Source: Escherichia coli (lineage in GTDB: Bacteria; Pseudomonadota; Gammaproteobacteria; Enterobacterales; Enterobacteriaceae). From it: a DNA stretch of 25,996 nucleotides. This document shows, one piece after another, positions 1,695 to 4,775 of the stretch; position 1 is the first letter of the stretch; each line of letters begins with the position of its first letter. The notes below the pieces were generated by a model that searched no databases, was not told the DNA's origin, and worked only from the letters and a program-made list of their open reading frames with translations. The stretch lies in assembly GCF_003334315.1 (NCBI RefSeq), contig NZ_QOWR01000064.1. The stretch is one strand, 5' to 3'. The position numbers were made by a program, and so were the translations under genes.

Positions 1695-1710
1695 AATTGG
1701 TCAACCATTG
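1695..1710. promoter_or_regulatory. Candidate UxuR/ExuR (GntR-family) operator, core TGGTCAACCA
   Basis: AAATTGGTCAACCATT: inverted TGGT / ACCA half-sites with a 2-nt spacer, in the gntP-uxuA divergent regulatory region. The same core recurs at 1804-1813 and 4750-4759. Confidence 0.5.
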
Positions 1711-1800
1711 TTGCGATGAATGTCACATCCTCTGATCAATAACCATCGATTACCCTTTGCTGCAATTTGCAGCAACAACCATGAGAGTGAAATTCTTGTG

Positions 1801-1816
1801 ATGTGGTTAACCAATT
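1801..1816. promoter_or_regulatory. Candidate UxuR/ExuR operator, perfect palindrome TGGTTAACCA
   Basis: ATGTGGTTAACCAATTT, about 165 bp upstream of the uxuA start. A TTGACA -35-like hexamer follows at 1829-1834, but I could not place a convincing -10. Confidence 0.5.
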
Positions 1817-1979
1817 TCAGAATTCGGGTTGACATGTCTTACCAAAAGGTAGAACTTATACGCCATCTCATCCGATGCAACGCCACGGCTGCGGTCTGGT
1901 TGTTCATCCGGATACCTAAACAACTCCAGGGTTCCGCGTCTCTTTGCTGTGGAACCCACTATGTGAAAGAGGAAAAATC

Positions 1980-3164
1980 ATGGAACAGACCTGGCGCTGG
2001 TACGGCCCAAACGATCCGGTTTCTTTAGCTGATGTCCGTCAGGCGGGCGCAACTGGCGTGGTTACCGCGCTGCACCATATCCCGAACGGCGAAGTATGGT
2101 CCGTAGAAGAGATCCTCAAACGCAAGGCGATCGTTGAAGACGCAGGCCTGGTGTGGTCTGTCGTAGAAAGCGTACCAATTCACGAAGATATCAAAACCCA
2201 CACTGGCAACTATGAGCAGTGGATCGCTAACTATCAGCAGACTCTGCGCAACCTGGCGCAGTGCGGCATTCGCACCGTGTGCTACAACTTCATGCCGGTG
2301 CTCGACTGGACCCGTACTGACCTCGAATACGTGCTGCCAGACGGCTCCAAAGCGCTGCGCTTCGACCAGATCGAATTCGCTGCATTCGAAATGCATATCC
2401 TGAAACGTCCAGGCGCGGAAGCGGATTACACCGAAGAAGAAATTGCTCAGGCTGCTGTTCGCTTCGCCACTATGAGCGACGAAGACAAAGCGCGTCTGAC
2501 CCGTAACATCATTGCTGGTCTTCCGGGCGCGGAAGAAGGCTACACCCTCGACCAGTTCCGTAAGCACCTGGAGCTGTACAAAGATATCGATAAAGCGAAG
2601 CTGCGCGAAAACTTTGCCGTCTTCCTGAAAGCGATTATTCCAGTTGCTGAAGAAGTTGGCGTGCGTATGGCGGTTCACCCGGACGATCCGCCGCGCCCGA
2701 TCCTTGGCCTGCCGCGCATTGTTTCCACCATTGAAGATATGCAGTGGATGGTTGATACCGTAAACAGCATGGCGAACGGTTTCACCATGTGCACCGGTTC
2801 CTACGGCGTGCGTGCTGACAACGATCTGGTTGATATGATCAAGCAGTTCGGTCCGCGTATTTACTTCACCCATCTGCGCTCCACCATGCGTGAAGATAAC
2901 CCGAAAACCTTCCACGAAGCGGCGCACCTGAACGGTGACGTTGATATGTACGAAGTGGTGAAAGCGATTGTTGAAGAAGAACACCGTCGTAAAGCGGAAG
3001 GCAAAGAAGACCTGATCCCGATGCGTCCGGACCACGGTCATCAGATGCTGGACGACCTGAAGAAGAAAACCAACCCAGGTTACTCCGCAATTGGTCGTCT
3101 GAAAGGCCTGGCCGAAGTTCGCGGTGTCGAACTGGCGATCCAGCGCGCTTTCTTTAGCCGTTAA
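1980..3164 (+). CDS. uxuA: Mannonate dehydratase UxuA (394 aa)
   Basis: The translation [40 protein letters not shown]… is recognisable as UxuA. I chose ATG 1980 over the ORF-track start at 1944 because AGAGGA lies 6-8 nt upstream and the product is then the expected 394 aa. Confidence 0.93.
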
Positions 3165-3170
3165 TACCCA

Positions 3171-3206
3171 CCGGCATGGCTGCGCGCCGTGCCGGTTCCT
3201 TCTTCC
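3171..3206 (+). terminator. Intra-operon hairpin (possible partial terminator/attenuator) between uxuA and uxuB
   Basis: Stem CCGGCAUGGC / GCCGUGCCGG (one G·U pair), loop UGCGC, followed by the pyrimidine-rich UUCCUUCUUCC; there is no clean U-run. Confidence 0.35.
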
Positions 3207-3244
3207 TTGCCGTCACTCTCTGAAGACGGATTCTGGAGTTTACG

Positions 3245-4705
3245 ATGACTACTATTGTTGACAGCAATCTGCCGGTTGCCCGCCCGTCATGGGAGCATTC
3301 TCGTCTGGAATCACGCATTGTGCATCTCGGTTGCGGGGCGTTTCACCGCGCGCACCAGGCGCTGTATACCCATCACCTGCTGGAAAGCACCGACAGCGAC
3401 TGGGGTATTTGCGAAGTTAACCTGATGCCAGGCAACGACCGCGTGCTGATCGAAAACCTGAAAAAACAGCAACTGCTGTACACCGTGGCGGAAAAAGGCG
3501 CGGAAAGCACCGAGCTGAAAATTATCGGTTCGATGAAAGAAGCGCTGCATCCGGAAATCGACGGCTGCGAAGGTATTCTCAATGCGATGGCGCGTCCGCA
3601 GACGGCGATTGTCTCTCTGACAGTCACGGAAAAAGGCTACTGCGCTGATGCGGCAAGCGGTCAGCTGGATCTCAATAACCCACTGATCAAGCACGATCTG
3701 GAAAACCCGACTGCGCCGAAGTCCGCGATTGGTTACATCGTCGAAGCCCTGCGGCTGCGTCGTGAAAAAGGGTTGAAAGCGTTTACGGTGATGTCCTGCG
3801 ATAACGTGCGTGAAAACGGCCATGTGGCGAAGGTCGCGGTACTGGGACTGGCTCAGGCGCGTGACCCGCAGCTGGCGGCATGGATTGAAGAGAACGTCAC
3901 CTTCCCGTGCACCATGGTTGACCGCATCGTTCCGGCGGCGACGCCAGAAACCTTACAGGAAATTGCTGACCAGCTGGGCGTTTACGACCCGTGCGCCATT
4001 GCCTGCGAACCGTTCCGTCAGTGGGTGATTGAAGATAATTTCGTTAATGGTCGCCCGGACTGGGATAAAGTGGGCGCACAGTTCGTTGCAGACGTTGTGC
4101 CGTTCGAAATGATGAAGCTGCGTATGCTGAACGGTAGCCACTCTTTCCTGGCGTACCTCGGTTACCTCGGCGGCTATGAAACTATTGCCGACACCATGAC
4201 TAACCCGGATTATCGCAAAGCGGCCTTTGCCCTGATGATGCAGGAACAAGCGCCAACGCTGTCGATGCCGGAAGGTACGGACCTGAACGCCTATGCGACG
4301 CTGCTGATCGAGCGTTTCAGCAACCCGTCTCTGCGTCACCGTACCTGGCAGATTGCGATGGACGGCAGCCAGAAGTTACCGCAGCGTCTGCTGGACCCGG
4401 TGCGTCTGCACCTGCAAAACGGCGGCAGCTGGCGTCACCTGGCGCTGGGCGTGGCTGGCTGGATGCGTTACACCCAGGGCGTGGATGAGCAGGGTAATGC
4501 CATTGACGTGGTCGACCCGATGCTGGCCGAGTTCCAGAAGATTAACGCGCAGTATCAGGGCGCAGACCGCGTGAAAGCGCTGCTGGGCCTGAGCGGTATT
4601 TTTGCCGATGATCTGCCGCAGAATGCCGACTTTGTTGGCGCGGTGACTGCGGCATATCAGCAGCTGTGCGAACGCGGTGCGCGCGAGTGTGTGGCTGCGC
4701 TGTAA
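3245..4705 (+). CDS. uxuB: D-mannonate oxidoreductase UxuB (486 aa)
   Basis: Translation recognisable as the mannitol/mannonate dehydrogenase family (HLGCGAFHRAHQA Rossmann motif); GGAG RBS 6 nt upstream of the ATG; position immediately after uxuA. Confidence 0.93.
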   Translation: MTTIVDSNLPVARPSWEHSRLESRIVHLGCGAFHRAHQALYTHHLLESTDSDWGICEVNLMPGNDRVLIENLKKQQLLYTVAEKGAESTELKIIGSMKEALHPEIDGCEGILNAMARPQTAIVSLTVTEKGYCADAASGQLDLNNPLIKHDLENPTAPKSAIGYIVEALRLRREKGLKAFTVMSCDNVRENGHVAKVAVLGLAQARDPQLAAWIEENVTFPCTMVDRIVPAATPETLQEIADQLGVYDPCAIACEPFRQWVIEDNFVNGRPDWDKVGAQFVADVVPFEMMKLRMLNGSHSFLAYLGYLGGYETIADTMTNPDYRKAAFALMMQEQAPTLSMPEGTDLNAYATLLIERFSNPSLRHRTWQIAMDGSQKLPQRLLDPVRLHLQNGGSWRHLALGVAGWMRYTQGVDEQGNAIDVVDPMLAEFQKINAQYQGADRVKALLGLSGIFADDLPQNADFVGAVTAAYQQLCERGARECVAAL

Positions 4706-4728
4706 CTAACTGATTACCCTACAGACTT

Positions 4729-4775
4729 ACTGGTCAATCAAACTGGTATTTGGTTGACCAGTTTTCGTTTTTTTG
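4729..4775 (+). terminator. uxuB terminator hairpin, with the shared operator core TGGTTGACCA embedded in it
   Basis: Inverted repeat ACTGGTCAA…TTGACCAGT followed by TTTTCGTTTTTTT. The 3' arm contains TTTGGTTGACCAGTTT, which is the reverse complement of the uxuA-upstream site core. Confidence 0.6.

Follow-up and report, generated by a model that had tools for sequence, protein, structure and literature searches.

Operators for UxuR (and ExuR) of the hexuronate regulon were reportedly described in E. coli and other gammaproteobacteria by comparative genomics, by Rodionov in 2000 and by Suvorova in 2011. The sites described here share with those operators the same palindrome, the A/T-rich flanks, the positions before gntP/uxuA and before uxuR, and a neighbouring repressor that regulates itself. 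There is no essential difference from the known operators, and the sites are the same sites. UxuR also matches the models of the FadR subfamily of GntR regulators, whose operators are TKGT/ACMA palindromes. In this subfamily the usual spacing between GT and AC is 3 nt, whereas the 2 nt found here is a minority type, represented by UxuR, GntR, PrpR and others (PMC4494728).

A further comparison is offered by the lac operon. There, repressor bound at the operator ends the lacI transcripts. The uxu region resembles lac in that the operator of a regulator is located at the boundary of two transcription units, from which it can affect both the upstream transcript and the downstream promoter. Unlike lac, the uxu region has a complete RNA terminator, so that a roadblock is unnecessary. 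The gene order is also reversed, with the uxu regulator gene downstream of the structural genes. No mention of an overlap between the uxuR site and the uxuB terminator hairpin was found in the searchable literature, which does not include the primary UxuR papers.

Here we describe this overlap in a window of 25,996 bases from E. coli, by which we mean the whole stretch of DNA that was analysed. The window contains the fimH-(gntP remnant)-uxuA-uxuB-uxuR region, which is 100% identical to annotated E. coli uxuA, uxuB and uxuR. NCBIfam equivalog models identify the three proteins as mannonate dehydratase, fructuronate reductase and the Uxu operon regulator. The regulatory DNA differs from that of K-12 at only two bases, one in the gntP/uxuA spacer (window 1684) and the other in the hairpin loop, so that K-12 data apply to it. 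The genes and an additional element are as follows.

1640, minus strand: gntP start codon
1980 to 3164, plus strand: uxuA, mannonate dehydratase (sequence identity and NCBIfam)
3245 to 4705, plus strand: uxuB, fructuronate reductase (sequence identity and NCBIfam)
4852 to 4897, unstranded: REP-type palindromic element in the uxuR leader (sub-threshold match to the REP-derived family naRNA4, RF02564; 40 bits, E = 9e-5)
4920 to 5693, plus strand: uxuR, GntR/FadR-type repressor (NCBIfam NF007588 equivalog, 583 bits against a cutoff of 442)

The REP-type element is missing in most Citrobacter and Klebsiella spacers and is longer in other Escherichia. An Rfam search of 1200-6000 returned sub-threshold REP-derived matches only, none of them over the hairpin or the uxuA leader.

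TGGT-NN-ACCA sites flanking the uxu genes

The exact motif TGGTNNACCA occurs three times in the 25,996 bases, at 1698-1707 (TGGTCAACCA), 1804-1813 (TGGTTAACCA) and 4751-4760 (TGGTTGACCA). In dinucleotide-preserving shuffles the mean was 0.42 occurrences, and three were reached in 1 of 100. All three matches fall within the two short spacers on either side of the uxu genes. In K-12 the cores correspond to positions 4,551,354-4,551,363, 4,551,460-4,551,469 and 4,554,407-4,554,416. An earlier note on this DNA had claimed three inverted TGGT/ACCA copies, two before uxuA and one before uxuR, and the window holds exactly these. The strings that it quoted are present, with coordinates that were off by 1-2 nt: AAATTGGTCAACCATT is at 1694-1709 (given as 1695-1710), ATGTGGTTAACCAATTT at 1801-1817 (given as 1801-1816) and TTTGGTTGACCAGTTT at 4749-4764 (given as 4747-4762). 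The sites, with the promoter elements of the gntP/uxuA spacer, are listed below.

1694 to 1711, unstranded: putative operator O1 (AAATTGGTCAACCATTGT; core 1698-1707, centre 1702.5), exact core, 21.1 bits, same in K-12
1797 to 1812, unstranded: CRP-like site TGTGA-N6-TAACC, centre 1804.5, overlapping O2 (read from the sequence)
1800 to 1817, unstranded: putative operator O2 (GATGTGGTTAACCAATTT; core 1804-1813, centre 1808.5), upstream of the uxuAB promoter, exact core, 21.4 bits
1829 to 1834, plus strand: TTGACA, candidate uxuAB -35, 16 bp after the O2 core
4747 to 4764, unstranded: putative operator O3 (TATTTGGTTGACCAGTTT; core 4751-4760, centre 4755.5), coinciding with the terminator 3' arm, exact core, 22.1 bits

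When all 4+gap+4 palindromes were tested in 139 non-Escherichia uxuA/uxuR upstream regions, the most enriched was TGGTNNACCA, present in 43% of these regions against 5.5% of background chunks. The motif was thus found without prior choice. A weight matrix was built from 115 uxuA/uxuR upstream sites, all from outside Escherichia. It ranks O3 first, O2 second and O1 third in the window; the fourth-best match scores 11.8 bits, and the maximum in shuffled sequence is 11.5 +/- 2.6 bits. The comparison of a matrix with background, proposed in the earlier note, therefore places the three sites on top by about 10 bits. As a positive control in K-12, the matrix scored a site before uidR at 22.1 bits and two sites before uidA at 15.8 and 15.2 bits.

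Each site is an even TGGT-N2-ACCA palindrome with A/T-rich flanks, in agreement with the UxuR consensus AAATTGGTATACCAATTT (PMC8092373). All are located upstream of hexuronate/glucuronate regulon genes, in the gntP/uxuA and uxuB/uxuR spacers. They are conserved at orthologous positions as the O3 box, the O1/O2 pair and the O2 composite block. A text search of the literature for the site strings found unrelated papers only, no relevant UxuR ChIP or DAP-seq data turned up in a literature search, and a UxuR site list is absent from the supplements of PMC4494728 and PMC11806353.

O1 precedes the gntP start codon by 62 bp and is separated from O2 by 106 bp. The site is conserved, with a separation of 104-106 bp, in Escherichia and Citrobacter. 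It would adjoin the divergent gntP promoter. The 106 bp between O1 and O2 correspond to approximately ten helical turns, a distance that would allow cooperative binding via a DNA loop. O2 belongs to a composite block, TTGTGAT-n-TGGTTAACCAA-N14-16-GGTTGACAT, that is kept in Escherichia, Citrobacter, Pantoea, Erwinia and Enterobacter-like loci. Within it GGTTGACAT stays at a fixed distance from O2 across genera, and the TTGACA at 1829-1834 is likely the uxuAB -35 hexamer. A scan with consensus promoters found no full promoter at uxuAB, where the -10 and the start could not be confidently placed.

The left half of the CRP-like site is perfect and the right half (TAACC) matches 3 of 5 positions of the consensus TGTGA-N6-TCACA. 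The TGTGA half beside O2 is conserved in most genera. The centre of the site is 24.5 bp before the TTGACA hexamer, and CRP may bind here. A class I site is expected near -61.5; if CRP acts from there, the uxuA start would fall at about 1864-1866. Because O2 overlaps this site just upstream of the uxuAB -35, UxuR bound at O2 would exclude CRP or the alpha subunit of RNA polymerase.

The gntP/uxuA spacer contains a UxuR SELEX peak and is selected by purified UxuR alone, and glucuronate decreases this binding (PMC5934670). The same paper refers to "two binding sites within the same operon" and gives the target as gntP/uxuABR. Its main text describes a single site in the gntP/uxuA spacer, and occupancy of O3 in vitro is implied only by a figure legend and a table.

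The O3 box and the uxuR promoter

The box TTTGGTTGACCA is found upstream of uxuR in Escherichia, Citrobacter, Klebsiella, Salmonella arizonae/diarizonae, Morganella, Providencia, Photorhabdus and Photobacterium. It thus precedes uxuR across Enterobacterales and Vibrionaceae irrespective of the upstream gene. The hairpin is absent in most of these genera, and the box is outside any hairpin where the upstream neighbour is not uxuB. Salmonella enterica subsp. arizonae and diarizonae have a perfect box and a T-rich tract at -65, without the 5' arm. Downstream of O3 is the following feature.

4787 to 4815, plus strand: uxuR promoter GTGCCA-17-TATAGT with a TG extension (4807-4808), the sole promoter-like match in 1400-5000

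This promoter has the hexamers, the 17-bp spacing and the TG of a sigma-70 extended -10 promoter, as well as reported holoenzyme binding: a SELEX catalogue of RpoD holoenzyme promoters includes GTGCCA-17-TATAGT in the uxuB>uxuR spacer (PMC3946193). Conservation of TGnTATAGT extends to Citrobacter, Klebsiella, Atlantibacter, Salmonella and Cedecea. From this promoter we infer a uxuR transcription start near 4822, which would place the centre of O3 at approximately -66. The same box is at -24/-25 in Cedecea, Morganella and Providencia.

uxuR is repressed by its own product (PMC12842492), and O3 would be its autoregulatory operator, presumably acting from -66. As this position is unusual for simple steric repression, any account of how, and how strongly, UxuR represses its own gene in E. 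coli is tentative. In a matrix scan for a second operator nearer the E. coli uxuR -10, no position in 4765-4919 exceeded 7.2 bits. The operator's own TTGACC was considered as the uxuR -35 of E. coli and rejected, as there is no -10 at the right distance. In Photorhabdus the arrangement TTGACC-16-TATTAT/TATGAT does fit as a promoter.

The predicted uxuAB terminator hairpin

The DNA around O3 also contains a predicted RNA structure.

4729 to 4774, plus strand: predicted intrinsic terminator of uxuAB (terminator scan and folding), with 5' arm 4729-4742, loop 4743-4748, 3' arm 4749-4762 and T tract 4763-4774 (TTTCGTTTTTTT)
4731 to 4740, unstranded: TGGTCAATCA within the 5' arm, complementary to O3 and resembling an operator with a single core mismatch, 11.8 bits

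The hairpin begins 24 nt past the uxuB stop (4705). It has a stem of 14 pairs, a 6-nt loop and a folding energy of -18.8 kcal/mol (z = -5.8); equal folding was reached in none of 200 shuffles. RNAalifold predicts the same helix. A stable stem-loop downstream of the stop codon followed by a U-rich tract predicts intrinsic termination, with a uxuAB 3' end at about 4765-4775, and the location of the third site within the 3' arm of the uxuB terminator, as proposed in the earlier note, is borne out by the pairing of 4749-4762 with 4729-4742. The stem length, the loop, the T-rich tract, the distance from the stop and the compensatory change described below are all typical of intrinsic (Rho-independent) terminators. 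Unlike these, the uxuAB stem is A/U-rich (5 of 14 pairs are G-C) and its T tract is interrupted.

The base pairing has been maintained during evolution in Escherichia, Citrobacter and Klebsiella. Among 18 related sequences, which represent few independent events, 99.2% of cells are paired with 2 compensatory pairs, against 17-50% in slid controls. One compensatory change, U-A to G-C at the equivalent of 4731/4759 (alignment columns 11 and 41), alters the operator ACCA to ACCC; the second is in K. michiganensis. All five of the one-sided changes that preserve pairing are in the 5' arm, where they are absorbed as G-U pairs, and the operator arm is less variable. This asymmetry is based on a small number of phylogenetically linked changes, as three of the five belong to one Klebsiella event. 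The 3' arm is held almost invariant, presumably by its second role in binding protein.

Within E. coli, variation of the hairpin is confined to the loop, which reads CTGATA in K-12 and CTAATA, CGCATA, CCAATA or ACTATA in other E. coli. The window's own loop, CTGGTA (4743-4748), was considered as an auxiliary UxuR half-site and rejected as strain-specific.

One sequence, two probable uses

We consider it very likely, from the sequence and its conservation, that the three sites are UxuR operators and that O3 doubles as the 3' arm of the uxuAB terminator, with the two functions separate. UxuR would act as a repressor that responds to fructuronate. Where uxuR directly follows uxuAB, as in Escherichia, Citrobacter and the sampled Klebsiella, the terminator appears to have been built over O3. 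The operator strand would serve as the 3' arm, the complementary 5' arm would be supplied 20 bp upstream, and the T tract would fit between operator and promoter. As duplex DNA, O3 would bind UxuR in the absence of inducer. As RNA, the same sequence would pair with the 5' arm and terminate uxuAB transcripts during induction, once UxuR has left the DNA. Both functions appear to be under selection, because pairs are kept by compensatory changes and the operator arm varies less.

The suggestion in the earlier note that terminator structure and repressor compete for one sequence was not supported. The hairpin is a structure of the nascent RNA, whereas the target of UxuR is duplex DNA. UxuR present at O3 should also fill the other two sites, which would shut off uxuAB transcription. 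The overlap is real and conserved, and dual use of one sequence describes it better than competition does.

An alternative is that UxuR at O3 blocks polymerases arriving from uxuAB or alters the efficiency of termination, so that occupancy and hairpin jointly set the read-through into uxuR. Operator and terminator arm share the same 14-18 bases, the overlap is maintained in three genera, the unit is written uxuABR in one paper (PMC5934670), and lac provides a precedent. However, a polymerase stalled at 4747-4764 stops before transcribing the 3' arm, so that hairpin and repressor would be sequential rather than competing. The same inducer frees all three operators, and O3 should be mostly empty while uxuAB is transcribed. 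Conservation of the box is just as strong at loci where nothing reads into uxuR, and two loci (L021 and L022) have a separate terminator hairpin, with the operator beyond its T tract. We regard this alternative as unlikely. We are similarly doubtful of its extension to a working coupling device that is more than compaction, in which UxuR at O3 tunes the uxuR promoter from upstream and insulates uxuR from uxuAB read-through as a roadblock. It would have O3 on the same helical face in all lineages, with centres near -25, -46 or -66 in steps of approximately 21 bp. Such a device might include DNA looping among the three operators, O1 and O2 being approximately 105 bp apart in many genera.

The hairpin could instead reflect tandem UxuR operators 20 bp apart (4731-4740 and O3), both bound by UxuR, since a repeated palindromic motif automatically gives an inverted repeat. 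The 5' arm has a single core mismatch and is the fourth-best match in the window, and two matrix matches exactly 20 bp apart precede uidA in K-12. The 11.8 bits of the 5' arm are, however, no better than the shuffle maximum. TGGTCAATCA also decays to GGGTCAATCA in Citrobacter (2 mismatches) and GGGTCAACTG in Klebsiella (3), with pairing retained through G-U. Loss of the motif while pairing is kept indicates that the 5' arm is constrained as RNA and not as an operator. The score and this decay led us to reject a second operator there as the main reading; 4731-4740 is probably not a working operator, and the tandem arrangement is decidedly improbable.

That the sites are mainly operators of ExuR rather than UxuR is less probable still. 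ExuR was reported to repress uxuAB as well in classical genetics (Robert-Baudouy 1981, as cited in PMC5934670), and the two paralogues are said to share a motif and bind interchangeably (PMC11806353). On the other hand, GT-N2-AC spacing has been assigned to UxuR sites and GT-N3-AC to ExuR sites (PMC4494728), and the gntP/uxuA spacer is selected in SELEX by purified UxuR alone (PMC5934670). In the K-12 uxaCA/exuT/exuR and uxaB regions the matrix found no strong match; the maximum of 14.2 bits is at the 3' end of ygjV, outside any promoter region, with approximately 10 bits elsewhere. A search of the uxu and exu regions for GT-N3-AC sites gave scattered one-mismatch matches, mostly intragenic, and was uninformative. 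The original assignment to UxuR/ExuR-type GntR/FadR regulators thus stands for UxuR, with its 2-nt spacing, and needs qualifying for ExuR, for which 3 nt is reported.

Least credible is a site 3 that is only a terminator arm with a coincidental likeness to an operator: the stem is strong and covarying, the core mismatch (ACCC) of Citrobacter and Klebsiella was fixed together with a compensating 5'-arm change, and -66 is unusual for a repressor site, but site 3 has the top matrix score in the window, its box precedes uxuR in genera with neither the hairpin nor an upstream uxuB, its arm is more conserved than the 5' arm, and uxuR autoregulation is reported (PMC12842492).

The UxuR operators are known biology, mostly a confirmation of textbook regulation in the bacterium that has been studied best, and the overlap with the terminator is a minor addition that involves no new mechanism. 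The three operators in 26 kb were correctly found from sequence alone, and their worth is that of a clean positive control. The small addition is the documentation of a short sequence under dual constraint, one from protein binding to the DNA and the other from the terminator arm of the RNA. Edits of O3 that target uxuR autoregulation would also weaken uxuAB termination, and vice versa. This dual constraint is relevant to editing of the region and to UxuR-based biosensors.

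The three operators and their assignment to UxuR

Positions 1400-5800 match annotated E. coli chromosomes that have uxuA, uxuB and uxuR at 100% identity, and essentially every one of the 5,426 complete E. coli genomes contains this stretch. One identical annotated record gives the gene order fimH, gntP remnant, uxuA, uxuB, uxuR, yjiC. The following genes are placed from its annotation, and each is identified by an NCBIfam equivalog:

1980-3164, uxuA (mannonate dehydratase)
3245-4705, uxuB (fructuronate reductase)
4920-5693, uxuR (Uxu operon regulator)

The UxuR protein scores 583 bits against the Uxu operon regulator equivalog (cutoff 442) and only 252 bits against the ExuR model. 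Because the two regulatory regions are nearly identical to those of K-12 MG1655 (two bases differ, window 1684 in the gntP-uxuA spacer and one hairpin-loop base), the K-12 literature is applicable here.

The earlier note proposed three operator cores, and these are borne out. TGGTNNACCA occurs exactly three times in the window, at 1698-1707 (O1), 1804-1813 (O2) and 4751-4760 (O3), against a mean of 0.42 in shuffled windows, where three copies were reached in only 1 of 100 shuffles. The site strings in that note are correct and its coordinates are off by 1-2 nt. In K-12 the cores lie at 4,551,354-363, 4,551,460-469 and 4,554,407-416.

The motif was also derived independently. Of 80 loci from other species that encode UxuR relatives, every non-Escherichia locus contributed the 300 nt in front of uxuA and of uxuR, and every 4 + gap + 4 palindrome in these regions was counted. 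The top palindrome is again TGGTNNACCA, present in 43% of upstream regions and in 5.5% of chunks drawn at random from those loci. A symmetric, 20-column matrix built from 115 distinct non-Escherichia sites has the consensus TAAATTGGTTAACCAATTTA, consistent with the published UxuR consensus AAATTGGTATACCAATTT (PMC8092373). A matrix scan, suggested earlier as a check and run here with this matrix, ranks O3 (22.1 bits), O2 (21.4) and O1 (21.1) first to third across the whole window. The fourth is the 5' arm of the uxuB terminator hairpin at 11.8 bits, and scores in shuffled windows peak at 11.5 +/- 2.6.

As a positive control, the matrix finds sites in K-12 upstream of uidR (22.1 bits) and uidA (15.8 and 15.2 bits), and nothing above 14.2 bits in the uxaCA/exuT/exuR, uxaB and lgoR regions. 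The uid matches and the low uxaCA/exuT/exuR and uxaB scores are in line with the spacing reported for the two regulators, GT-N2-AC in UxuR sites and GT-N3-AC in ExuR sites (PMC4494728). Of the regulators proposed, UxuR fits the 2-nt spacing and the matrix; ExuR sites are reported with 3-nt spacing, although the paralogues are elsewhere described as interchangeable binders (PMC11806353). The two uidA sites (6096-6135 in the K-12 locus L085) lie directly upstream of the gene and exactly 20 bp apart, the spacing of the two arms of the uxuB terminator. An unexpected 19.5-bit match falls within the malX coding region (L085 9693-9712).

In genomic SELEX, purified UxuR selected the gntP/uxuA spacer and glucuronate lowered its binding; the figure legend gives two sites in the operon and the target is named as gntP/uxuABR (PMC5934670). 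Autorepression of uxuR is stated (PMC12842492) and, according to a citing paper, dates to Ritzenthaler and Mata-Gilsinger 1982. The three sites correspond to UxuR operators already known for gntP, uxuAB and uxuR.

The gntP/uxuA spacer

Operator O1, centre 1702.5, 62 bp from the gntP start codon
1797-1801, putative CRP half-site TGTGA, first part of the O2 block
Operator O2, centre 1808.5, inside a conserved composite block
1829-1834, probable -35 TTGACA, last part of the O2 block, after the operator

Conservation of the O2 block, TTGTGAT-n-TGGTTAACCAA-N14-16-GGTTGACAT, extends from Escherichia as far as Pantoea and Erwinia. The -35 begins 24.5 bp downstream of the CRP-like centre (1804.5), a position that would fit a class I activator, and UxuR and CRP would exclude each other at O2. 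In a promoter scan of 1400-5000 the uxuA -10 and start site could not be placed.

O1 and O2 are 106 bp apart, and operator pairs upstream of uxuA are separated by 101-107 bp (about ten helical turns) in Escherichia, Citrobacter, Pantoea, Erwinia, Cedecea and Morganella (loci L007-L054). The operator paired with the composite CRP/operator site is found on its upstream side in Escherichia and Citrobacter and on its downstream side in Pantoea. This recurrent spacing suggests cooperative UxuR binding via a DNA loop.

The fructuronate transporter gene gntP, which UxuR targets, survives in this strain as a remnant (1436-1640, minus strand), with 54 nt in place of about 1,181 bp of the K-12 gene (junction 1529-1582). 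What is left comprises ~19 codons from its start and ~105 nt from its end, with the promoter region and O1 intact, and the same junction is found in 852 of the 5,426 complete genomes. Between fimH and the remnant are a REP-like element (1269-1307; sub-threshold naRNA4 match, 30.7 bits) and then a 13-pair terminator-like hairpin (1401-1429). The 80-nt uxuA-uxuB spacer holds a G+C-rich 11-pair hairpin (3170-3196) followed by TCCTTCTTCC; because this tail has no clean T tract, the hairpin may serve mRNA stability or processing instead of termination.

The hairpin at O3

As had been proposed, O3 lies within the 3' arm of the predicted uxuB terminator. The hairpin begins 24 nt past the uxuB stop and pairs 4729-4742 with 4749-4762 (14 pairs, 6-nt loop; -18.8 kcal/mol, z = -5.8), so that the 3' arm spans the core, and the T tract follows in TTTCGTTTTTTT. 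Pairing holds in 99.2% of hairpin cells across 18 sequences from Escherichia, Citrobacter and Klebsiella, against only 17-50% if the partner is shifted by 1-3 columns, and compensatory change is seen at two pairs. At one of them, U-A in Escherichia corresponds to G-C in Citrobacter and Klebsiella, changing the operator from ACCA to ACCC with pairing preserved; the hairpin is therefore maintained to some extent at the operator's expense. The five one-sided changes that preserve pairing are all in the 5' arm, absorbed as G-U pairs; the 3' arm TTGGTTGACC is invariant, and variation within E. coli is confined to the loop. This asymmetry, from few independent events, is suggestive of a dual constraint on O3.

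TTTGGTTGACCA is found upstream of uxuR regardless of the neighbouring gene in Escherichia, Citrobacter, Klebsiella, Morganella, Providencia, Photorhabdus and Photobacterium, and also in Salmonella enterica subsp. arizonae and diarizonae. Outside the uxuAB-uxuR lineage the box belongs to no hairpin. In these Salmonella subspecies uxuR and an unrelated gene are divergently oriented and the 5' arm is absent, and a perfect TGGTTGACCA with a T-rich tract lies at -65 of GTGCTA-17-TGcTATAGT. Two more distant loci (L021, L022) have a separate G+C-rich terminator hairpin with the operator after its T tract, which makes the overlap a compaction specific to one lineage and not a requirement.

Operator position and proposed successive use of one sequence

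Scanning 1400-5000 yields a single promoter-like match, GTGCCA-17-TATAGT with a TG extension (4787-4815). These hexamers are catalogued for uxuR among promoters bound by RpoD holoenzyme alone (PMC3946193), and TGnTATAGT is kept in Citrobacter, Klebsiella, Atlantibacter, Salmonella and Cedecea. Given the inferred uxuR start near 4822, O3 is centred at about -66 and the T tract covers about -59 to -48, where an UP element would lie. Relative to the conserved -10, TGnTA(T/A)A(G/C)T, the operator falls in three distance classes (loci L007-L071):

Centre -24/-25: Cedecea, Morganella, Providencia
Centre -46: Citrobacter
Centre -64 to -67: Escherichia, Klebsiella, Salmonella arizonae/diarizonae, Pantoea allii

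The ~21-bp steps between classes would hold the repressor on one helix face. From -66, UxuR could possibly repress by blocking alpha-subunit contact with the T-rich tract or, alternatively, by looping to the other operators. In Photorhabdus (L055-L066) the operator TGGTTGACCA, ~67 bp upstream of uxuR, gives a -35-like TTGACC 16 nt before TATTAT or TATGAT. This coincidence of operator and -35 may be the reason that the box upstream of uxuR keeps its orientation and its central TG.

The uxuR leader ranges from ~40 to ~165 nt and here contains one further element:

4852-4897, REP-type palindromic element, sub-threshold naRNA4 match

Most Citrobacter and Klebsiella lack the element, and in other Escherichia it is ~55 nt longer; because of it the O3-to-ATG distance varies (164 bp here, ~218 bp in other Escherichia, ~90 bp in Citrobacter).

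The earlier suggestion that terminator structure and repressor binding compete at O3 is not supported, since the hairpin is an RNA structure and UxuR binds DNA as a duplex. With UxuR on 4747-4764, an oncoming polymerase would stall with the 3' arm still untranscribed. One inducer would also clear O1, O2 and O3 together, so that the terminator would work mainly while O3 is free; a roadblock contribution by UxuR at O3 is improbable. On these grounds we read the O3 element as a single sequence used twice in succession. We found no mention of the terminator/operator overlap in the searchable literature. The operators themselves are already known, and the overlap adds a modest anatomical note to them.
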